From Candidatus Spongiisociaceae bacterium (lineage in GTDB: Bacteria; Actinomycetota; Acidimicrobiia; Spongiisociales; Spongiisociaceae), in the NCBI GenBank assembly GCA_965262915.1, contig OZ253564.1:1152001-1216000 (forward strand): 64,000 nucleotides of DNA. Direction: 5' to 3'. This document shows, one piece after another, positions 10,405 to 21,168 of this stretch. Position numbers and translations under genes: made by a program. Each line of letters opens with the position of its first letter. The stretch's first letter is position 1. Under the pieces are notes generated by a model that was not told the DNA's origin, did not search any database, and saw only the letters and a list, made by a program, of their open reading frames with translations.

Positions 10405-11202
10405 CTACCAGAAGGCGATCCCGCCGTTGAGATCGAATACCTGCCCGACCGATGAACCGGCGTCCGATGACGCGAGGAAGGCGACCATACCGGCCACCTC
10501 CTCCGGTGTCTGGTAGCGGCCGAGCGGGATGAGGTCACGGAACCGTTCCCGTACCGCTGTGAACGACTCGCCGCTCCGCTCGGAGATGTCGGCCTGAAGG
10601 GAACGGACCATCTCCGTGTCGACGATCCCCGGGAACACCGCGTTCATCAGGACGCCGTGGGGTGCGAGTTCCAGGGCCATCTGCTTGACCAGTCCCATCG
10701 CGGCGTGTTTGCTGGCCACGTAGGCCGCGGCAGGTGTGCTCCCCGACGACGGAAGGCGCCCGGCCGTGGAGACGATGGTGACTATCCGACCGCCCCGGCC
10801 CTGATCGATCATCCGGGATGCGGCGACCTGCGAGCAGAACAGGACCCCCTTGGCGTTGACGGACATGTGCCGGTCCCATTCCTTCTCCGTAACCTCGATC
10901 GCAGACGCCAGCGCCAGGACGCCGGCGTTGTTCACCATGATGTCGAGCCGTCCGAAGGCGCCGGTTGCCTGCTCGACGGCCGCCACGACCTGAGCTCTGT
11001 CCGAGACATCCACAACTGTCGGGATGGACCGTCCGCCCACGGACAGCACCTCTTCGGAAACCGAGCGGGCTGCTTCCCCATCGATGTCGGACGTGACAAC
11101 CGTCGCTCCCTCCCGCGCCAACCGCAGCGCGATCGCGCGGCCGATGCCACGCCCGGCTCCCGTGACGATCGCTACCTGGCCCTCGAGTTCATAGCGGGGC
11201 AC
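10405..11202 (-). CDS. SDR family oxidoreductase
   Basis: [23 protein letters not shown]. Confidence 0.93.
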
Positions 11203-11327
11203 GAGAACTCCTCTCCATCCGGAGTCCTATATGGCACATCGCCGGCGGGAGTAGCGGCGACCGCGGGTCAGGTGATTCGAACGTGGCGGCCTTGGGATAG
11301 GACGGCAGGGCAACCGGGCGGTCTCCT

Positions 11328-11612
11328 CTAGAGGTTCTCCAGGAACTCGACCTCTCGGTTCTCCAGGAGGGGCCGGAGCACTGCGATGGCCACTTCGGCG
11401 AAGTGGTCGGAGGCGATGTGGGCATCGATGGCAGCCCGGTCGTCGTACTGCTCCACGAGGATGAACAGGCGGCGATTGTCGATGCCCCGGTATACGTCGA
11501 AGGCGATGCATCCCGGTTCGGTGAGCACCATGGTTACGTAGCCGCGCAGGGCCTCCGCCAACTTCTCCTCGTTTCCGGGGGCCGCAACGTAGGTGGCCTG
11601 GATGATCATCAT
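11328..11612 (-). CDS. Antibiotic biosynthesis monooxygenase (ABM/YgiN-like) protein
   Basis: EPGCIAFDVYR, FILVEQY..AAIDAHIASDHF. Confidence 0.88.
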   Translation of the reverse strand: MMIIQATYVAAPGNEEKLAEALRGYVTMVLTEPGCIAFDVYRGIDNRRLFILVEQYDDRAAIDAHIASDHFAEVAIAVLRPLLENREVEFLENL

Positions 11613-11653
11613 ATCTTGTTCCTTTCGATCGCGTCTCTAGGGGGACCGCAGGG

Positions 11654-11980
11654 TCACATCGATGCAAACCCGATCGAGCGGAGTTGCTGCCGGCCTTCCT
11701 CGGAGACCTGATCGGGTGTCCAAGGTGGATCGAACACCCAACTGACCTCGAAGTCCTCGATCACACCCTGGCCGACCAACTCGTTGCGCATCTGGTCCTC
11801 GATGACCGACGTCAGCGGGCAGAAGGGGTTGGTGAGGGTCACGTCCAACGAAGCCTGCAGGCCGTCCACCTGCACCTCGCGCACGAAACCGAGGTCGACG
11901 ATGTTGACGCCGAGATCCGGATCGATGACCTTGCGGAGCGATTCGATGATCTGGCTCTCGATGCCGGTGGGAGCATCCAT
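11654..11980 (-). CDS. DUF59/SufT/PaaD-like metal-cluster assembly factor
   Basis: VIDPDLGVNIVDLG, LTNPFCPL, VFDPPWTP. Confidence 0.92.
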   Translation of the reverse strand: MDAPTGIESQIIESLRKVIDPDLGVNIVDLGFVREVQVDGLQASLDVTLTNPFCPLTSVIEDQMRNELVGQGVIEDFEVSWVFDPPWTPDQVSEEGRQQLRSIGFASM

Positions 11981-12429
11981 CAGGTCACCTTCCTTTCGTC
12001 GGTGTTGGGTCTGCTGTCGGAACCGTGGTCTTTCTCGGATCGATCTCCGGCTTCTTCGGTGGTCAGGTTCCGCCAGGTGACCACCCGGAGCCGTATCTCC
12101 ACGCGGGTGGTTCGGGTGGTGATCCAGTCGGCGATGCCATGGGCCATCCGGCGGAGGCGGGTAATCACGTCTCCGTCACCGACGGTCCAGGAGCCGACCA
12201 CCATCTCATCGCTCCGGATGCCGAACCGGGCCGCCTCGGCGACGCCCTGTTCGAGTACACGGGCCAGGGGCGCCGACACGGTTCCGGCTCGGAACTTGAG
12301 AGCCTGGTGAGCCTCGTCGGCGGGCATGCCTTCGAGCCGGGCAAGGATACGCCTGGCCTCGTCCTGTTCGATGCGAGCGTTGGTCTGGCAGGCCGTAACG
12401 CTCGGTTCCGGAAGCCGGGATTCGCTCAT
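11980..12429 (-). CDS. Divergent ribosomal protein uL22 paralogue
   Basis: Near-ungapped alignment by eye to uL22 over ~105 aa: AR..R.......G.....A...LKF, VLEQGVAEA, VGDG....RLRRMAHGIADWITTRTT (cf. VDEG....RIMPRAKGRADRILKRTS). Confidence 0.82.
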   Translation of the reverse strand: MSESRLPEPSVTACQTNARIEQDEARRILARLEGMPADEAHQALKFRAGTVSAPLARVLEQGVAEAARFGIRSDEMVVGSWTVGDGDVITRLRRMAHGIADWITTRTTRVEIRLRVVTWRNLTTEEAGDRSEKDHGSDSRPNTDERKVT

Positions 12430-13670
12430 CGCTTTCTCCTGGGCCTGCCGACCCGGCGCAGGTCGGTGGAGAGGTCTTCGATCTGGGCGGCGGTGACCGG
12501 CGTACCCGCTCTCATGAGCTTGCGGGTGGCGAAAATGTCGCGAGGCCTGCCGATGGTCAGCACGGCCTCGATCTTATTCGTATCGTCGTGGTCGCCGGAC
12601 AGTTGGAAGGCGGAGAAGGACCGCTCCCCGATGGACCCGCGGATCACATGCGGAGCGTCGGGATCGAAATGACCGAGAGACTGGATGGTCAGGTCGTACT
12701 GATCCGACCAGAACCAGTGGGGGGCACCGTCCACGGCGTCCTGGCCAACAATGTTGCGGGCCACCACAGCCCCCTGCCTCATGGCGTTGTCATGGTGCTC
12801 GACTCTCAGGTAGCCCCCACCGGACTGCTGCCCGGAGGCCACATCTCCGGCTGCATACACGTCGGGTACCGATGTCCGGCAGTGCCGATCCACCCGGATC
12901 CCCCCGTTCACCTCGATGGCGGTGCCGTGAGCTAGTTCGGTGTTGGGGATCATCCCCGCCGCCACCAGCATCCACTCGCACTCGAGTTCGCCTCGGTCCG
13001 TGGTGACGGCCAACCCGTCGGCGGTCTCCACCACGCTCGTTACCCGCTCTCCCAGGCGTAAGGTGCAGCCCGCGTCACGGTGGATTTCGGTCATGACCCG
13101 GCCGTACCGCTCCCCCAACGGAGCCTGCAGGCATTGCGTCTCCATCTCGATGATGGTGACCTCCGCCCCCAGACCGCGGGCAGTGGCGGCCACCTCGCAT
13201 CCGATGAACCCTCCTCCGAGCACCACCGCCTGGTTGCCGCCACGCAGCCTGCGGGCCAGATCCTCGGAATCGTCCCGGGTACGCAGGTGCAGGATCCGCT
13301 CGCCTTCGAAGCCGGGCAGCCTCCGGGCCCGGCCGCCGGTGGCGATGAGAAGATGGTCATAGTGGATGGTTCCGGCCTTGTCTGTCTCGACTGCCGAGCC
13401 ATCCACATCGATCGAGGTCGCGCGGGTACCGAGAACCAGTTCGACGGCGTTGTCCCGGTACCACTCCTCGGACCGGATGGTGGCGTCGCCTGATGCCATC
13501 GACCCGGCGAGTACCTCCTTCGACAGGGGAGGACGTTCGTAGGGCGGTACGTCTTCCTCGGATACCAGGACGACGCGGCCGTCGAAACCCAGATGTCTCA
13601 GGTTCGACGCGGCCGCGGCCGAGGCTGTACCGCCGCCCAGGAGCATGACGGTCTCGGAGAGACCCGCCAT
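12426..13670 (-). CDS. Glutathione-reductase-type NAD(P)H:ferredoxin reductase
   Basis: PYERPPLSK, LIATGG, GGGFIGCE, VYAAGD, WFWSDQYD. Confidence 0.93.
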   Translation of the reverse strand: MAGLSETVMLLGGGTASAAAASNLRHLGFDGRVVLVSEEDVPPYERPPLSKEVLAGSMASGDATIRSEEWYRDNAVELVLGTRATSIDVDGSAVETDKAGTIHYDHLLIATGGRARRLPGFEGERILHLRTRDDSEDLARRLRGGNQAVVLGGGFIGCEVAATARGLGAEVTIIEMETQCLQAPLGERYGRVMTEIHRDAGCTLRLGERVTSVVETADGLAVTTDRGELECEWMLVAAGMIPNTELAHGTAIEVNGGIRVDRHCRTSVPDVYAAGDVASGQQSGGGYLRVEHHDNAMRQGAVVARNIVGQDAVDGAPHWFWSDQYDLTIQSLGHFDPDAPHVIRGSIGERSFSAFQLSGDHDDTNKIEAVLTIGRPRDIFATRKLMRAGTPVTAAQIEDLSTDLRRVGRPRRKR

Positions 13671-13671
13671 G

Positions 13672-13992
13672 TCAGCCGGGCGGCGCTACACAGATGACGC
13701 CTCCCTCAACCTTGCAGGGAATGGAGAAGAGGGCCGAGTCCGCGGGGTTGATGCCTTTGCCGGTGACGGCGTTGAACTCCCACAGGTGGTTGACGCACGT
13801 CAGTACCTCGCCGTCCAGATCCCCGTCATGGAGAGGCCATGCCTGATGGGGACAGCGGTCCCGGTAGGCGCGTACCTCCCCGTCCACGTTGACGATGACG
13901 ACCTTCGTGCCGCCGGCATCGACCCCTTCGATGTCGCCTTCCCAGAGGTCATCGAGGTCCATTACCTCCAGCCACCGGGCTGCGTCGCTCAT
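13672..13992 (-). CDS. tmoC: Rieske [2Fe-2S] ferredoxin (TmoC-like)
   Basis: CPHQ...CVNHLWEFNAVTGKGINP. Confidence 0.92.
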   Translation of the reverse strand: MSDAARWLEVMDLDDLWEGDIEGVDAGGTKVVIVNVDGEVRAYRDRCPHQAWPLHDGDLDGEVLTCVNHLWEFNAVTGKGINPADSALFSIPCKVEGGVICVAPPG

Positions 13993-13995
13993 CCG

Positions 13996-14066
13996 AGTGG
14001 TCTGTCTGTGAAGGGCCGTCGCTGGCAAGCAGGCCGCAGCGAATCACTTTGCGGACAGACCACTAG
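13996..14066. mobile_element. Family B MITE (short form) between beta-subunit stop and ferredoxin start
   Basis: Inverted ends AGTGGTCTGTCTGTGAA / TTTGCGGACAGACCACT, CTAG on the right; similar to 45070-45141. Confidence 0.78.
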
Positions 14067-15091
14067 CCGACGGATTGGAGGGCGCCAAGCCCGGCATCGG
14101 CGAGAAGTTGCTCCCGTGCTGCCTTGGCCTCCCCAGCCACCGCTTCGGCACTGACATCTCCGGCCGGGGCCTGGGCGAGTATCCCACCCAGCGCCAGCGC
14201 AGCGGCGTCTGCGCGCGGTGCCCATTTCGCGATCCATCGCTCGAAGGCCGGGACGTTCTCCGGCCGCCCCTCTACCGCCAGGCTCCCCACGGCCGCCGAC
14301 CACCTGGCCCTCCGAGCCGAGTCCTCGTGCAGGTTCTGGCACAGCAGCCACGTGAGGTCGTCACCGTTGGCGCGGGCTGCCTCTCCCAACGCCCGGTTGA
14401 GGACGTCGTCGAGTGTCGGAGCTATCACCAGGTTGGCGGCGGTTATAGCCTCGCCCCAGTCGTAGGCGATCAGCGCCCGCTCGAGAAGTTCTCGTGTCGG
14501 TTGCCATCCCTCGTGGTTCTCCCAGACATCCCGCTCGCCAGTGGCGAAACCCGCGTCCGGGTAGCCCAACTGCAGCTCCCGCGTACGGATCGATACCACC
14601 GTCACCCGCCGGAGCTGGTCTGCCGCCGCCAAGGCTGCCGCATTGGTGATGTACGCCGTGGGCGACATGTGTGCCACGTAGGCCTGCAACATCTGAATGG
14701 CATGGGCCGGGTATCGGATCGGTGTGTAGAAAGTCCGGAGTATCTCCACCCATTCGGGGGAGAGGGACCGGTCGTGGCCTATGCTCGCATAGCTGTCCAG
14801 CAGACCGGCGACCTTCGTCTCCTGGGCCGCCTGCTTGGCCACATAGGCCCGGTACGTCAGCTGGTCCGGATCCCTGAACACTTCCCAGTCGTCGAGTTGG
14901 ATCGGCGAGTTGTCACGATAGGCCAGGAACCACAGGTTGCCCGGTGAGGAGGGGTTCTGCTCCAACGGCGCCAGCCGGCCCTTTCGCATCGTGTAGTTGG
15001 CGGCGTGGGTGCCGATCTCGTACTCGGTGGGCCTGCGGCGGATATCGCCGAACTCGCTCCAAGTGCGTAGCTTCCGCTTCTTGGCGCTCAT
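14063..15091 (-). CDS. tmoE: Soluble di-iron monooxygenase hydroxylase beta subunit (TmoE-like)
   Basis: RRRPTEYEI, FRDPDQLTYRAY, AYDWGEA, position in cluster. Confidence 0.93.
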   Translation of the reverse strand: MSAKKRKLRTWSEFGDIRRRPTEYEIGTHAANYTMRKGRLAPLEQNPSSPGNLWFLAYRDNSPIQLDDWEVFRDPDQLTYRAYVAKQAAQETKVAGLLDSYASIGHDRSLSPEWVEILRTFYTPIRYPAHAIQMLQAYVAHMSPTAYITNAAALAAADQLRRVTVVSIRTRELQLGYPDAGFATGERDVWENHEGWQPTRELLERALIAYDWGEAITAANLVIAPTLDDVLNRALGEAARANGDDLTWLLCQNLHEDSARRARWSAAVGSLAVEGRPENVPAFERWIAKWAPRADAAALALGGILAQAPAGDVSAEAVAGEAKAAREQLLADAGLGALQSVG

Positions 15092-15393
15092 GATGTCACC
15101 TCCTCCTCGGTCGCACCGCCCAGGGACCAGCTCGTCTGGTCGCTGCGGGAAGTGTTGATACGGCCGGCGTTGGCGGTCAACAGGGTCTCCAGCGACCGCA
15201 GTTGGTAGTCGGGTCCGAGATACCGCTTGAGCGAACTGGCCGTCAGCTTCAGGAACGAGGAGGCCTGGATGCGCACGTAGGCACCCCGATCGATCACCTC
15301 GATCTCGCGGCCCGGATTGTCGTCCTCGATGGCGCTGATGATCTCTTCGATCGTGTCGCTCATCCGCAGGATCGGTCCTACCGGATTCTCCAT
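15088..15393 (-). CDS. tmoD: Monooxygenase coupling/effector protein (TmoD, MmoB/DmpM family)
   Basis: VGPILR, EDDNPGREIEVIDRGAYVRI, AGRI. Confidence 0.93.
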   Translation of the reverse strand: MENPVGPILRMSDTIEEIISAIEDDNPGREIEVIDRGAYVRIQASSFLKLTASSLKRYLGPDYQLRSLETLLTANAGRINTSRSDQTSWSLGGATEEEVTS

Positions 15394-15403
15394 ACGGACC
15401 CTC

Positions 15404-15679
15404 CTACTCTTCCCAGTCCACACGGATGTGGTCGAGGGGGGCGATCCCCGCCTCGACCACCGTCACGTCGTCGGGCAGTATCCGGTTGTTGTGAATCACC
15501 AGCTTGGGCAAGCCGCGGTCCCGCACCCGGACTCCCACCGTATGGTGGGCGACCGCCTCTGCCACCTCCGCGATGGTGTTGTTGGACATCACCGGGACGA
15601 GAATCTCCACGAAGTCGTCGGCGAAGATGGCGTTCAGCGGGACGAGCTGGGGTTCGGCGGCGCCGCCGTTGTCGCTCAT
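15404..15679 (-). CDS. tmoB: Hydroxylase gamma subunit (TmoB-like)
   Basis: PLNAIFADDFV..LVPV....TIAEVAEAVAHHTVGVRV, TVVEAGIAPLD. Confidence 0.92.
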   Translation of the reverse strand: MSDNGGAAEPQLVPLNAIFADDFVEILVPVMSNNTIAEVAEAVAHHTVGVRVRDRGLPKLVIHNNRILPDDVTVVEAGIAPLDHIRVDWEE

Positions 15680-17184
15680 CCACCCACCCCCGCGCCAACG
15701 GGTTCGGTTCGCGCGTAGGCCTCGGTCCAGTCGTAGCCGCCGGCGTCGTCACCCATCACATCGGGGGTGAGACCCATGTAACCCAGGATGCCGGGGACGT
15801 CCATCGGCTGGATCTGGCCGGCGAGGAAGCGCTCCACCACCGTCTTGTTGTTGAGAGCGTCGCGATCCTCCCACCAGATCTGGCGGCAGGTCCTGGTGCA
15901 GAAGTGGTAGCGCACCCCGTTGTGCTTGAGCGAGTGGTTGCGGACCCGCCACTTGCCGTCCCGTCCGTAGGTGGCGTTACAGGTCGGAAGGTGGCAATAG
16001 TTGCACAGCCAAGGGAGAGTCTCAGGTAGGGCTCGGTGCATATTGCCGGCGTTGATGTTCTCCGCCAACACCTTCCACTTGTCACCGTAGAGGAGATCCC
16101 AGTTGGGGTACTTCTCGATGAGCCACTCGCGGGATTCGGGGCTGACCCCGACCGGCTTCCACCACAGGGTCGGGCGCCAGAACCACTCGCCCATCTGCAG
16201 CGAGTGATGCCATACGTCGAGACCCGCGATGAACTCGTCCCAGTACCAGGGGCGCTTCAGGCCGTAGTCCTGGATGGTGCGGACGAACTGATCGATGATC
16301 CACTCCTCCATGAACTCCCGGTAGCTCTGCTTGCGGTGCTCGACCGGCGTGTTGTAGTCCATCGACGGTCCGGTCAGGGCGGAGAAGGCCCGGGCCGAGA
16401 GCCAGAAGAACTTGTCCACTGTCCACTGGGCTCGTACCGGATCGTGCTCGACCAGGACCTCCAACGTGGGTCCGCCCTGCTGGGAGTGCCGGGCCTCGTC
16501 GGTCTGGATCGAGGAGATCAGGTTGGCGAATGCCACGTCGCCGGCTTCGAGGGCATCGGCGGCCAGGGCCACGAACTGGATGTTGGTGAAGCCCGTCTCG
16601 AACGCGAACGGGAGCTGGATGGCGATATCCACCACGCTGCCGCCGATCATCATGTTGTCGATCAGCGCCCGCAACGCGATGCTCACCCAGTCGTTGGTCA
16701 GCAATGCCCGGTGAGCCCAGTCGAACTGGGGATCGCGTTCCACCAGCTCGTGCGCGAACGTAAGGCTGAGCTGGCCGTGGCGGATCTCGTCGAGGGTGCC
16801 CATGACCGCCATGTTGCGCCAAGCGGGGCTCAGGCCGAAGCGGGCCATTCGGCTCTCCCCGTACACGGCGCCGTACTCGACTAGGGCGATCCCGCCGAGA
16901 TGCATCTTGACCGACGACCTCCACGCCTCGTCCAGCATGTCGTACTGGTTCGACCGGTGCAGGGCGGCCTTCACTGCGTAGGCGGCGGTCTCCTTCTCGT
17001 TCTGGGTGGCTACGTATTCAGGGTAGGCGACCTTGTAGCTCTCCTCCCAGGCCGACCAAGCCTCACGAGGAACCTTGCCCGATCCGCTCAACCAGTCAGG
17101 GAAGACGGCCTCGTCGTCCACGTAGCCCAGCGTCCAGTCGACATCCCGGACGATCCCTTGCCATTCCTCACGTTTGAGAGTCAT
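15676..17184 (-). CDS. tmoA: Soluble di-iron monooxygenase hydroxylase alpha subunit (TmoA/IsoA/XamoA group)
   Basis: Di-iron ligands VEYGA, DEIRH, FETGFTN, DEARH; WFWRPTLWW; C-terminal CNYC...HFCTRTC; RBS GAGGAAGGA before ATG 17184. Confidence 0.95.
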   Translation of the reverse strand: MTLKREEWQGIVRDVDWTLGYVDDEAVFPDWLSGSGKVPREAWSAWEESYKVAYPEYVATQNEKETAAYAVKAALHRSNQYDMLDEAWRSSVKMHLGGIALVEYGAVYGESRMARFGLSPAWRNMAVMGTLDEIRHGQLSLTFAHELVERDPQFDWAHRALLTNDWVSIALRALIDNMMIGGSVVDIAIQLPFAFETGFTNIQFVALAADALEAGDVAFANLISSIQTDEARHSQQGGPTLEVLVEHDPVRAQWTVDKFFWLSARAFSALTGPSMDYNTPVEHRKQSYREFMEEWIIDQFVRTIQDYGLKRPWYWDEFIAGLDVWHHSLQMGEWFWRPTLWWKPVGVSPESREWLIEKYPNWDLLYGDKWKVLAENINAGNMHRALPETLPWLCNYCHLPTCNATYGRDGKWRVRNHSLKHNGVRYHFCTRTCRQIWWEDRDALNNKTVVERFLAGQIQPMDVPGILGYMGLTPDVMGDDAGGYDWTEAYARTEPVGAGVGG

Positions 17185-17197
17185 GGTTGCTCCTTCC

Positions 17198-17662
17198 TCA
17201 GTCGACTTCCATGTGACCGAGTTGGCGGTAGATCGAGGCACTGTCCCAGTAGGCGGTCAGGCTCTCGATCCGGCCGTCGTCGTTTACATCGAATATGAAG
17301 GCGTGCGGTTCCCAGTACTTCATACCTTTGGGGGCGATCGGTCCCCACGCCTTCTCCTGGTGACCGCCGATGCTCACGACCGCCGCCACCTTTCCGTCCT
17401 CCGAGGCGGTGATCGAGTGGACCTCGTTGGACAGATCCGGGAAGGAGTTGATCAACCCTTCCCATATCGGCCGGGCCAACGTGGCGACCTTGCCGTCACC
17501 TCTGATGACCCGCTGCTTGGTCCAGATCTCGAACGGGACGTACGAGAAGTCGGCATTGTCGGTACAGAGGTCCACCATTGACAATGTGTCGTGCCGGCGG
17601 TAGGCCTCGAAGAAGGCTTCCACCGTTGCAACGGGGTCTGCCCTCGTAGCAGTTGTAGTCAC
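17198..17662 (-). CDS. NTF2/SnoaL-like protein
   Basis: VEAFFEAY..HD, SFPDL, DGRIESLTAYWD. Confidence 0.85.
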   Translation of the reverse strand: MTTTATRADPVATVEAFFEAYRRHDTLSMVDLCTDNADFSYVPFEIWTKQRVIRGDGKVATLARPIWEGLINSFPDLSNEVHSITASEDGKVAAVVSIGGHQEKAWGPIAPKGMKYWEPHAFIFDVNDDGRIESLTAYWDSASIYRQLGHMEVD

Positions 17663-17674
17663 GGATTCTCCTTC

Positions 17675-18094
17675 CTAGACGATCGACACCGCGTCGAGGC
17701 GTTTGACCGCCAGCCTGCGGTACAGGATGTTCTGATCCCAGAACCCCCGGATGGAAGTTATCCGGCCGTCGGAGACGCCCAGCATCCATACTTGGTCGAG
17801 GTCGATGTGTTTTTCCTGGTTGACGACGCCTAGATAGTCGGCGGCCTGGGTGCCCTCCATCTTCAATTCCGTGACCGCCGTACCGTCGGTTCCCATGAAG
17901 TGGTTCTTGGTGGTGAGAAGAAGATCCGGGAAGGCCGTGACCGTGGCCGCGAAGAAGCCTCTGGCCTCGTCCCTGCCACCCTTGACGTTGGCCGCCAGAA
18001 GATCGACGGTGGCGTCGGCCGAGACCAGATCCATCGCTCCGTCAACATCCCCTGCACTGATCGCGTCCCAGAAGGCGCCGGCTGTGTCGGACAT
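17675..18094 (-). CDS. SnoaL-like ester cyclase / NTF2 protein
   Basis: FWDAISAGDVD, TAFPDL, MEGTQ, DGRITSIRGFWDQ. Confidence 0.85.
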   Translation of the reverse strand: MSDTAGAFWDAISAGDVDGAMDLVSADATVDLLAANVKGGRDEARGFFAATVTAFPDLLLTTKNHFMGTDGTAVTELKMEGTQAADYLGVVNQEKHIDLDQVWMLGVSDGRITSIRGFWDQNILYRRLAVKRLDAVSIV

Positions 18095-18110
18095 CGGCAT
18101 CACCTCCCTG

Positions 18111-19130
18111 TCAGAGTATTGCGAGGCTCTTGAGCACCGCATCGGCCACCGCGTCGGCGGAGCCCGGGTTCTGGGCGGTGATCAGGTTACGGTCCACCAC
18201 GACATGGGACGACCAGGCGCTGCGCCCGTCGTCGAACACCGCCCCGGCGTTGCGGAGGGTGCTCTCTAGGTACCAGGAGAGACCATGCTGCCCGGGGCGG
18301 GTCTGGTCCTCTTCCTCGTCGGTGAACGACGTGACCCGGTAGCCGTCGAACAGCCACTGGCCGTCCAGGTTGGCGGGAGCCGACAGGAGGAAGGCGGGTC
18401 CGTGGCACACCGATGCGATGGCCGCCTGCTTCTCGTGGAGGATGCCGATCACCCTGGTCACGTCGGGGTTGTCGGACAAGTCCACCATGGGGCCATGGCC
18501 CCCGGGTACGAACACCGCGTCGAACTCCGCGATGTCCTCGTCGCTCAAGGTCGAAAGGTTGGCCGGGGAGACGAAGGCGGGTAGAGAATCGAGAGCGTCC
18601 TTGACCCGCTGCGATTCTGCGTCGCTGTCGGCGATCACCTCGGCGAGGGCGGATTCGAGGTCGGCCCGGGTGACGGACTCGGGTAGGTCCCGGGCTTCGA
18701 GTTCGTCCAGGAACTGGGTGTCGTTCCGCCATGAGGCGAAGGCAGCGCCGGATATGAGCTTGCGAGCCTCGACCGGGTGCATGCCGGTCCCCTTGAGCCG
18801 GTTGAACACCCGCAGCGCGGAGATCATGCCCAGTTCGGTCAGGTGGTGCAGGGTCAGGCGGATGTCGTCAACATCGTGCGCGAACGTCCGGGTGATGCTG
18901 TTGAGGAAGTCCTCGTCGTCATCCGGGTAGTGGAAGATCTCCTCGAGGCCGTAGGGGTCGGCGTAGGGGGAGCGGCCGTCGGGCGTGGTCACCACCACAT
19001 CAACACCCGCCTCGACAAAGCGTTCGTACGGCGTGAGCGCCTCGTCGGCGAAGTAGCCGGTCTCGTGCATGGAACCGTTGGCGAGCTGCATCTCCCGCGC
19101 GCTCGACACCAGGAACAACAATCGTGGCAT
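18111..19130 (-). CDS. DJ-1/PfpI (Hsp31-like) protein with internal insertion
   Basis: TGYFADE, FVPGGHGPMVDL, ASVCHGP, LITAQNPGS. Confidence 0.9.
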   Translation of the reverse strand: MPRLLFLVSSAREMQLANGSMHETGYFADEALTPYERFVEAGVDVVVTTPDGRSPYADPYGLEEIFHYPDDDEDFLNSITRTFAHDVDDIRLTLHHLTELGMISALRVFNRLKGTGMHPVEARKLISGAAFASWRNDTQFLDELEARDLPESVTRADLESALAEVIADSDAESQRVKDALDSLPAFVSPANLSTLSDEDIAEFDAVFVPGGHGPMVDLSDNPDVTRVIGILHEKQAAIASVCHGPAFLLSAPANLDGQWLFDGYRVTSFTDEEEDQTRPGQHGLSWYLESTLRNAGAVFDDGRSAWSSHVVVDRNLITAQNPGSADAVADAVLKSLAIL

Positions 19131-19911: not shown

Positions 19912-21168
19912 TTGATAGCTACACCCCCGGCGAGCTGGCACCTGGCACCTGGCACCTGGCACCTGGCACCTGGCACCTGGCACCTGGCACCTGGCTACAA
20001 GGTGATCCCCGACCCCGACGCTCCGGGGCGTCACAACTACTTCCCGCATCAGGGGTTGGGCGGTATAAGGATGTTCTCCGCTCTCTGCCGGAAGCTGGAA
20101 GCGGATGGCGGCCGTATCCTCCTCGGAACGGGCTTCTCGCGATTACGGACCGGCGACCGGGGCGAAGTGGTAGGGGCGGTGTGTAACAGCGACCGAGGCG
20201 TCATCGATGTCGACGCCGCGGCGACCGTGCTGGCGACAGGGAGTTTCAGCCGCAACACCGAACTCAAGGTGCGGTACTTCGGAATCAACGGCGACCGCAC
20301 CAGCTATTACGGTTCCCGCCATCACGACGGGGACGGCATCCTGGCGGCGCTGGATGTGGGTGCCTCGGTTAGCAGCGGCATCTCCGTGAGCACCGGCGGA
20401 TGTGTGTTCGCCCCGCCCTTCGAGCCGCCCGACGACCGGCACGTGTTCCTGGGGGGCGGGAGTGGTCTGGCATTGGAGCAACGCCGGATGCCCGAGCCGG
20501 TGCCTTCCGGTGTCCAGCGGCTCAGCCTCCGCCCGCCGATCTGGGGTGACGAGCCGTCGATCCTCGTGAACCTCGACGGCGACCGCTTCGTCGACGAGTC
20601 CTCCCGCTACACGGTGATCGGCTGGGCGACGACCGGCCAGCGCGAGGGGCTGGGCTTCTGCATATTCGACCACCCGGTCTACGTGGAATACGCGGAGACC
20701 ATCGAGGTCGCCCGCGGGATGGGTGCATGGACCTTGCGCGCGAACACGGTCGAAGAACTGGCTCTCGGACTTGCCGGCTGGCGGAGGACTCCCTCATACA
20801 ACGAAGGCGTGAACCCCCGCCGGCTCCTCCGTACGCTGGCCGAATACAACGCGGCCGCCCGGGGCCGCAGGCTGGATGACCTGTGGCCGCCACGCAAGGA
20901 GGGCGGCCGACCCCTCAACCGGCCCCCCTTCTACGCTTCGCCTGTGGTTCAAGGGGTAGTGGACCCGGCGGGTGGATTGCGCATCGACTCGGATGCCCGG
21001 GTTCTCGACCGAGGAGGGCGCCCCATCGCAGGTCTCTTCGCGGCAGGCGCCGACGCCGGCCGCGCCTACACGCGCGAGCACGGGGGCTTCGCCTTCCGTC
21101 TGATCTTCGGCCGCCGCGCGGGAACCAGTGCGGCATGGCTGTCGAGTCAGGTGCCTGACCGCCGCTAG
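19912..21168 (+). pseudogene. FAD_binding_2 flavoprotein (fumarate reductase/KstD-like), N-terminally truncated
   Basis: VLATGSF, GDGI, ILVNLDGDRFVDE, GGLRID...GLFAAG; N-terminal GxGxxG Rossmann segment absent, heptamer array in its place. Confidence 0.7.
19935..19995 (+). repeat. (CTGGCAC)8.7 heptamer tandem array
   Basis: 8 perfect units 19935-19990 plus CTGGC. Confidence 0.97.

Follow-up and report, generated by a model that had tools for sequence, protein, structure and literature searches.

A diverged uL22-fold protein and its DUF59 partner as a probable accessory factor of a rearranged toluene-monooxygenase-type gene cluster

Ribosomal protein uL22 is a universal, single-copy protein of the ribosome, and its hairpin lines the exit tunnel. 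What, then, does a second, uL22-like protein do when its gene lies inside the operon of a di-iron monooxygenase? We have addressed this question for a 64,000-nucleotide stretch of DNA, the whole of which is called the window, from Candidatus Spongiisociaceae bacterium (Actinomycetota; assembly GCA_965262915.1, contig OZ253564.1, positions 1,152,001 to 1,216,000). The gene in question is the following:

11980..12429, minus strand: L22-like gene with an ATG start, encoding a diverged, near-neutral uL22-fold protein of 149 amino acids

A sequence-only reading of the window had taken this open reading frame (ORF) for a uL22 paralogue and had offered two roles for it, namely co-option of the ribosomal fold, beside a DUF59 protein, for assembling the monooxygenase or serving as one of its subunits, or a subunit swapped into the ribosome. 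Our analysis favors the former. With a probability of roughly 0.6, the ORF encodes a non-ribosomal descendant of uL22 which, together with the DUF59 protein, makes up an accessory factor of two parts that is reserved for a single rearranged subfamily among the toluene-monooxygenase-type (TMO-type) soluble di-iron monooxygenases (SDIMOs). We infer all functions discussed below from sequence, structure prediction, and gene context.

The kinship with uL22 has been established by profile and by fold. Pfam family PF00237 (Ribosomal_L22) matches the ORF over positions 1-103 of its 104 with an E-value of 5.3e-16 and 59.1 bits (gathering score 28), and no other Pfam family matches it at E<=1. An AlphaFold2 model built on an alignment of 18 relatives (mean predicted local distance difference test score 83.4) has the layout of uL22, a small alpha/beta body with a long beta-hairpin formed by strands 76-94 and 100-116. 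The 50 best matches listed by Foldseek against the PDB are all ribosome entries, the top one being 5v7q_S (E-value 3.6e-10, template-modeling score 0.74 by target), and a sequence profile search of the PDB gave 58 distinct sequences, all of them uL22, with actinobacterial sequences best and Mycobacterium uL22 at the top. The ORF is thus a true yet diverged member of the uL22 fold family, and its score of 44.5 bits on the NCBIfam model TIGR01044 (rplV_bact) is under the equivalog cut-off of 73.65.

The canonical rplV expected elsewhere in the same genome is present at C1:229342-229671, about 0.93 Mb from the window, in the S10 operon (rplW-rplB-rpsS-rplV-rpsC-rplP). When the genome was searched with PF00237, this copy scored 110.8 bits versus 59.8 bits for the L22-like copy, which lies between a ferredoxin reductase gene and a DUF59 gene and not between rpsS and rpsC. 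Sixty-eight L22 domains were placed on a quick maximum-likelihood tree, which has few alignment columns and many unresolved forks; one of its branches splits 47 paralogues from 21 canonical uL22 sequences (Shimodaira-Hasegawa-like approximate likelihood ratio test support 99). In equivalog score, in operon, and in basic character, the protein does not behave as an rplV product.

The loss of basic character deserves a closer description. The replacements, originally noted by eye against an E. coli sequence, are real when the genome's own uL22 is taken as the reference in place of E. coli numbering: a BLASTP alignment places M95, H97, I99, W102, T104, and T105 of the paralogue opposite R, R, R, R, R, and K, respectively, and E24 is aligned with a conserved K of the uL22 N-terminal motif. 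Defining a conserved basic column as one with at least 80% Lys or Arg among the 21 canonical sequences, we obtained 12 such columns, four of which (R19, R57, R91, and R93) are kept in the 47 paralogues; two new basic columns have been gained, and R94 is a gained basic residue of the paralogue hairpin. The median net charge of the L22 domain is +2 in the 47 paralogues (range -3 to 7) versus +9 in the 21 canonical proteins (range 2 to 19). For the whole proteins of this genome, the corresponding values are -1 with a pI of 6.3 for the L22-like protein and +10 with a pI of 10.8 for its own uL22. The replaced hairpin residues fall in the following segment:

12109..12159, minus strand: beta-hairpin tip, codons 91-107 (RLRRMAHGIADWITTRT), replacing the basic tunnel loop of uL22

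Among 26 diverse members of the L22-like family, R19, A40, R93, R94, G98, W102, and T107 are invariant and R91, A96, H97, A100, and I103 are near-invariant, and the hairpin-tip motif RxRRxAHGxADWI is the most conserved segment. The gene is under purifying selection: the ratio of nonsynonymous to synonymous substitution rates (dN/dS, Nei-Gojobori method) ranges from 0.14 to 0.37 among the five pairs whose dS is under 0.8, and all 55 pairs lie below one, most of the others being saturated. Since dN/dS is below one and a hairpin tip has become newly conserved, the divergence of the L22-like gene is a case of neofunctionalization rather than decay.

The gene is flanked on its own strand by the two genes with which it overlaps:

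12426..13670, minus strand: ferredoxin reductase (FAD/NAD(P)) of the dioxygenase type, HcaD/BphA4-like; Pyr_redox_2 208.9 bits, Reductase_C 77.1 bits
11654..11980, minus strand: DUF59 (FeS_assembly_P) protein of 108 amino acids; PF01883 63 bits

At the upstream junction, the minus-strand sequence ATGA (12429-12426; TCAT on the plus strand) combines the ATG of the L22-like gene with the TGA of the reductase gene, and at the downstream junction TGATG (11982-11978; CATCA on the plus strand) combines the TGA of the L22-like gene with the ATG of the DUF59 gene. Both overlaps are read directly from the sequence, and those that had been noted for the 149-amino-acid ORF are thus present on either side. 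The reductase scores 305.8 bits on the HcaD model, which is under the cut-off of that model.

Relatives of the L22-like protein were collected from protein databases, genomes, and metagenomes. A word-seeded search gave 45 protein clusters (clustered at 90% identity), with identities of 44-99% and PF00237 in all of them. A profile search of 1.84 billion representatives gave 2030 matches at E<=0.001; about the top 30 of these (at least 70 bits) have the hairpin motif of the family, and lower down canonical uL22 is found. Species-representative genomes gave 11 loci, which come from metagenome-assembled genomes (MAGs) of Acidimicrobiia, Candidatus Spongiisociaceae, Egibacteraceae (one MAG), and Actinomycetota (one MAG) and from the cultured Amycolatopsis rubida DSM 44637 (locus L012). 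Their gene order was determined by tblastn with the proteins of the window, the gamma subunit not being among the queries. In all 10 genome loci with full flanks, the gene order is DJ-1, SnoaL, SnoaL, alpha, effector, beta, Rieske, reductase, L22-like, and DUF59, and the eleventh, on a 3-kb contig, has reductase, L22-like, and DUF59. The L22-like ORF is intact in the 10 genome loci in which the frames were followed (L003-L012); in L013 several genes at once are broken into frames, and in L009 the beta gene is in two pieces.

A metagenome scan yielded 200 relatives, and the best 80 of the 200 loci were analyzed; these 80 are not independent, since they collapse into 33 clusters at the 90% identity level and into 12 at the 70% level. 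The gene directly upstream of the L22-like gene is the reductase (50) or the Rieske ferredoxin (24) in all 74 metagenome loci with upstream sequence, DUF59 is directly downstream in 70 of the 72 with at least 400 nucleotides downstream, and the gamma gene lies between alpha and effector in every metagenome locus reaching that far. Throughout the 91 loci examined (11 from genomes and 80 from metagenomes), the L22-like gene follows the reductase or Rieske gene of a TMO-type cluster, and none of these loci has it apart from the rearranged TMO-type cluster.

Physical joining of the two downstream genes provides a further line of evidence. Of the 70 metagenome loci with DUF59, 54 have the L22-like and DUF59 parts in a single ORF of about 245-300 amino acids and 16 have separate genes; counted per 90% cluster (33 in total), 22 are fused, 10 are split, and one is without DUF59. 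Both domains were above the Pfam cut-offs in five of five fused ORFs tested, and 10 long database proteins comprised five with both domains, two with a shortened DUF59, and three with L22 alone. The ESM Atlas holds two clusters of this architecture, with 101 and 124 members, in which PF01883 is present in 100% and PF00237 in 99%; their automatic name is "iron-sulfur cluster assembly protein family protein", and the commonest known taxa are Actinomycetota. On the 68-row tree, the fused state requires at least two changes, there being one fused clade of 18 rows and a second, small fused clade that is sister to the split clade of the window (support 96). Repeated fusion or fission of this kind is classical evidence that the L22-like and DUF59 parts work together.

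The DUF59 protein of the window is below the cut-offs of all four equivalog models to which it was compared: haloarchaeal PaaD (78.8 bits, cut-off 180), SUF_assoc (72.3, cut-off 143.4), SufT (67.8, cut-off 202.6), and PaaD (57.6, cut-off 108.15). One cysteine is invariant in each form, C54 in 22 split proteins and C193 in 32 fused proteins, and it is presumably the functional cysteine of the domain. The genome has one other DUF59 gene, at 4.62 Mb.

The remaining genes of the cluster in the window are as follows:

13672..14028, minus strand: Rieske-type [2Fe-2S] ferredoxin; PF00355 66.2 bits
14063..15091, minus strand: hydroxylase beta subunit; PF02332 231.8 bits, and 272 bits to beta of toluene/o-xylene monooxygenase (ToMO), 1t0q_B
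15088..15423, minus strand: effector (coupling) protein of the MmoB/DmpM family; PF02406 75.8 bits
15404..15679, minus strand: hydroxylase gamma subunit of the TmoB family, 91 amino acids; PF06234 93.2 bits, profile positions 1-78 of 78
15676..17241, minus strand: hydroxylase alpha subunit, TMO type, with the di-iron center; PF02332 235.8 bits
17198-17662 and 17675-18142, minus strand: two SnoaL-like (NTF2-fold) genes; PF12680 and PF07366 matches
18111..19130, minus strand: DJ-1/PfpI-like gene, 339 amino acids, the first conserved gene of the cluster; PF01965 58.1 bits

By sequence comparison, this is a TMO-type SDIMO cluster with the order alpha, gamma, effector, beta, ferredoxin, reductase, and it is the only SDIMO of the genome. 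The alpha subunit scores 553.7 bits with ToMO alpha (1t0q_A) and about 530 bits with TmoA of toluene 4-monooxygenase (T4MO), versus 151 with phenol hydroxylase and 58 with the methane monooxygenase hydroxylase (MMOH). The sequence-only reading was right in seeing a di-iron monooxygenase operon and overlooked the gamma subunit, whose TmoB-family gene lies at 15404..15679 between alpha and effector. The presence of this gene at 15404-15679 also ruled out the L22-like protein as a stand-in for a missing gamma subunit: with alpha, beta, and gamma all encoded, the hydroxylase has its full set of subunits, to which the L22-like protein is an addition and not a gamma substitute. The SnoaL fold is common to some epoxide hydrolases, and the DJ-1-like and SnoaL-like products may process the oxidation product.

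Several variations of the cluster were observed among the relatives. The loci in which Rieske is upstream without an intervening reductase (24 of 74) are L046, L047, L057, L067, L074, L094, L096, L097, L103-L114, L116, L117, L120, and L121, and no reductase match was found up to 8 kb downstream in those with enough sequence (e.g., L108, L110, and L111). The DJ-1-like gene and two SnoaL-like genes are directly upstream of alpha in L003-L010, L012, and L013 and in the metagenome loci reaching there. L004 (6748-8001), and likewise L044, has some 1.25 kb inserted after the reductase and ahead of the intact L22-like gene; the insertion of L004 begins with a partial second L22-like copy (81 amino acids aligned, 44% identity) and ends with 3' fragments of the reductase, and the insertion is a partial duplication of the reductase/L22-like junction. 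L094 (201-2992) and L097 (6016-8807) have a DJ-1-like fragment followed by beta, Rieske, and fused L22-like-DUF59; no match to alpha, gamma, or effector was found in either, even with 6 kb of upstream sequence in L097, and either the cluster is rearranged or degraded, or alpha is located elsewhere.

Other features at the ends of the operon are recorded here. A promoter and terminator scan of 11100-11800, at the operon end, detected nothing. A short-chain dehydrogenase gene (10405-11202, minus strand) lies 450 bp downstream of DUF59; its place is not conserved in relatives, only L003 having a short-chain dehydrogenase match, 6 kb off and on the other strand. Between the cluster and the next gene, at 19935-19995, is a perfect 7-bp tandem repeat (CTGGCAC, 8.7 copies), which encodes a repeated peptide in ORFs of both strands. 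Contigs from RNA runs (two sponge metatranscriptomes, X18 and X19, and two runs guessed to be RNA) fall on scattered parts of the operon, and one X19 contig spans 11773-11983, corresponding to DUF59, with DNA carry-over being possible in all of these cases; bins 12106-12707, which include most of the L22-like gene, have no cover in these contigs.

Whether the L22-like and DUF59 pair belongs to TMOs in general can be judged from 401 evenly sampled genomes of the phylum, 15 of which are unpublished, so that the tally is partly based on unpublished genomes. An L22 match at E<=1e-12 was found in 343 of the 401, and only the genome of the window has a match in the range of the paralogue (190.8 bits). 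A second L22 match in genome G126 was ruled out as a member of the family, because both of its matches are in the canonical range (66.5 and 49.5 bits) and the genome is a fragmented MAG. In a sample of 401 genomes drawn in the same manner, an alpha homologue at E<=1e-40 is present in five. The two closest of these homologues (51% and 49% identity) belong to clusters arranged in the classical way, alpha-gamma-Rieske-effector-beta; neither L22-like nor DUF59 was matched within 19 kb of these two clusters, and each of the two genomes has a single L22 match genome-wide. As judged from these two comparison clusters, the pairing of L22-like with DUF59 is therefore a trait of the rearranged subfamily and not of TMOs generally.

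These results favor the co-opted role. That the L22-like protein was co-opted as an assembly factor or subunit beside DUF59 agrees with the synteny in 91 loci, with the fusions in 54 of 70, and with purifying selection. We regard it as likely that the protein has left the ribosome and is a dedicated accessory component that acts together with DUF59; a fold of the ribosome would then probably have found new use in a factor for enzyme maturation. Useful guidance comes from PaaD, a SufT-like DUF59 protein (about 170 residues) encoded in the operon of the di-iron phenylacetyl-CoA epoxidase PaaABCE; PaaD has been described as indispensable in vivo and unneeded for catalysis in vitro and has been proposed to aid iron incorporation into PaaE or PaaA (PMC4498308). 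SufT itself is reported to be involved in the maturation of iron-sulfur proteins (PMC4982691, PMC9045647).

On this basis, a specific mechanism, an adaptor for maturation, can be put forward tentatively. The DUF59 half would help to load iron or an iron-sulfur cofactor into a client, as is thought for SufT and PaaD; the loading would be required in vivo, and the factor would stand outside the catalytic cycle. The L22-like half would serve as a client-recognition arm, using the re-tooled hairpin tip RxRRxAHGxADWI on the uL22 scaffold, and would bring the factor to one of the components of the monooxygenase. The Rieske ferredoxin would be the likely client, because it is the sole iron-sulfur protein of the system, the reductase being without an iron-sulfur domain, and because its gene is always at most one gene upstream; the di-iron hydroxylase would be the second candidate.

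Several points weigh against a two-part maturation factor. Classical TMO enzymes are known to work without such a factor when they are produced in E. coli. No fixed contact between the L22-like and DUF59 halves is predicted, since the AlphaFold2 model of a natural fusion consists of two confident domains joined by a disordered linker (121-146) with a predicted template-modeling score of 0.53; the two parts may be modules on a tether that share one target, and not a rigid pair. A single complex prediction for DUF59 and residues 1-128 of the L22-like protein, each with its own alignment, gave a score of 0.20, the mark being 0.32, and weighs neither for nor against a contact. In L049 and L050, which represent one lineage, the L22-like gene is followed by an aldehyde dehydrogenase-like ORF and no DUF59 was found within 8 kb, so that the L22-like half can occur where no DUF59 adjoins it. 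Near-copies are frequent among the 80 metagenome loci, as is evident from the 33 clusters at 90% and 12 at 70%. Finally, because R91 and R93 are kept and R94 has been gained, some binding of nucleic acid or phosphate may be possible, as judged from these residues. At this place in L050 (7983-9943), the ORF encodes 502 amino acids, is aldehyde dehydrogenase-like by eye, and overlaps the stop of the L22-like gene.

Might the L22-like protein be part of the working enzyme in fixed stoichiometry, with a structural or regulatory role, and not a maturation factor? It could, for example, be a Rieske-reductase scaffold, or a fourth subunit bound to the hydroxylase and gating its active site in the manner of MmoD. 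Translational coupling to reductase and DUF59, the constant place of the gene after the electron-transfer genes, and a hairpin tip conserved like an interface are consistent with such a component, and a reductase of a different type, or none in the cluster, could make an extra docking protein necessary. We consider it unlikely nevertheless, because the fusion partner is DUF59, whose relatives act in cofactor maturation, with PaaD dispensable in vitro, and because the hydroxylase already has alpha, beta, gamma, and effector.

The other role offered by the sequence-only reading, in which the protein replaces uL22 in some ribosomes and either protects the tunnel from a pathway product or reprograms translation, is disfavored and in our estimation very improbable. 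A uL22 fold present in full and a hairpin of the usual length, the retained R19, R57, R91, and R93, and the existence of alternative paralogues for other ribosomal proteins, bL31B being an example given in a review (PMC10931766), would suit a protein of the ribosome. Such a role is difficult to reconcile with the loss of eight of the 12 conserved basic columns, only four being kept, with a near-neutral domain (charge of about +2 vs +9), and with a score below the rplV equivalog cut-off. Moreover, the protein is fused to DUF59 in most relatives, was not seen apart from the enzyme cluster in the 91 loci examined, and is present in one of the 401 sampled genomes of the phylum.

A combined picture, in which an L22-like-DUF59 protein occupies the uL22 site of some 50S subunits near the tunnel exit and brings about co-translational metallation of nascent monooxygenase subunits, would make use of the intact fold and hairpin length and of the four kept basic columns; the charge loss speaks against such a specialized ribosome, and we give this picture very little credence as well. 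Still less probable is an RNA-binding autoregulator acting on the mRNA of its own operon, as some ribosomal proteins do for theirs. Descent from an RNA-binding protein and a few retained Arg residues are in its favor, set against a near-neutral charge, genes so tightly packed that stops and starts overlap, and a DUF59 fusion that has no logic under an RNA-regulator model. A decaying, functionless duplicate of rplV, for which the lower L22 profile score than that of the canonical copy (59.8 vs 110.8 bits) might be cited, can practically be dismissed, since the ORF is intact in L003-L012 and broken only in L013, where several genes are affected together, dN/dS is well below one with newly invariant residues, and the gene is conserved from Acidimicrobiia MAGs to Amycolatopsis.

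The two-part accessory factor thus remains the preferred reading. It would be an accessory factor of the DUF59 type whose targeting domain is new, and as far as we have found no uL22 family outside the ribosome has been reported before it. The earlier statement that no description was known agrees with the literature searched, in which no published account of a non-ribosomal uL22 family or of an L22-like monooxygenase component was found; databases hold the two-domain architecture under automatic names. In the available text of a 2024 review on extraribosomal functions of bacterial ribosomal proteins, the mentions of uL22 are confined to its part as an early assembly protein and to the title of a reference (PMC10931766). 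The words "ribosomal" and "DUF59" are absent from the main text of a 2025 SDIMO review, whose supplementary operon tables could bear on this point (PMC11825192).

If the preferred reading holds, the family would plainly show a core ribosomal fold put to another use, in the biogenesis or assembly of an enzyme, and the poorly understood DUF59 domain would gain a defined client system with a cultured host, Amycolatopsis rubida DSM 44637. There is also a likely annotation error, in which relatives are labeled ribosomal protein L22 or uL22 and genomes may be counted as having two rplV genes; the only relatives with names from their sources, P0045 and P0047, are both called ribosomal protein L22 or uL22. 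A need for accessory genes may explain why uncharacterized TMO subgroups might prove difficult to express without them.

It is useful to compare the system with those already known. With uL22 (rplV), the L22-like protein shares the fold, the full-length profile match, and the long beta-hairpin, its nearest solved relatives being actinobacterial; it differs in falling below the equivalog cut-off, in lying outside the S10 operon, in having lost two thirds of the basic columns, and in its near-neutral charge, new hairpin-tip motif, and usual DUF59 fusion. Alternative ribosomal paralogues are described as occupying the same place in the ribosome (PMC10931766), and like bL31B/YkgM the L22-like gene is a diverged additional copy of a gene for a ribosomal protein and lies outside ribosomal operons; unlike them, it belongs to an enzyme cluster and its product has largely lost rRNA-binding character.

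Among oxygenase systems, phenol monooxygenase and soluble methane monooxygenase (sMMO) operons are listed with a gene for an "accessory protein" in the 2025 SDIMO review (PMC11825192), and MMOD has been called an auxiliary protein (PMC6774732). The L22-like protein resembles MmoD of sMMO and DmpK/PHK of phenol hydroxylases in being a small extra protein of an SDIMO operon outside the minimal catalytic set, and has no sequence relation to them, PF00237 being its sole Pfam match at E<=1. TMO operons are given in the same review as six genes without an accessory protein, in the order alpha-gamma-ferredoxin-coupling protein-beta-reductase (PMC11825192). As in ToMO and T4MO, alpha, beta, gamma (TmoB), effector, and Rieske are all present here and are nearest to theirs; unlike in those systems, the order is alpha-gamma-effector-beta-ferredoxin, the reductase is of the dioxygenase type or missing, and DJ-1-like, two SnoaL-like, L22-like, and DUF59 genes are conserved. 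A further comparison is with PaaD and SufT: as with PaaD, the operon of a di-iron multicomponent oxygenase includes a gene for a DUF59 protein, and this protein matches the PaaD and SufT models and has an invariant cysteine, while its scores are below all equivalog cut-offs and the fused relatives carry an extra N-terminal domain of the uL22 fold.

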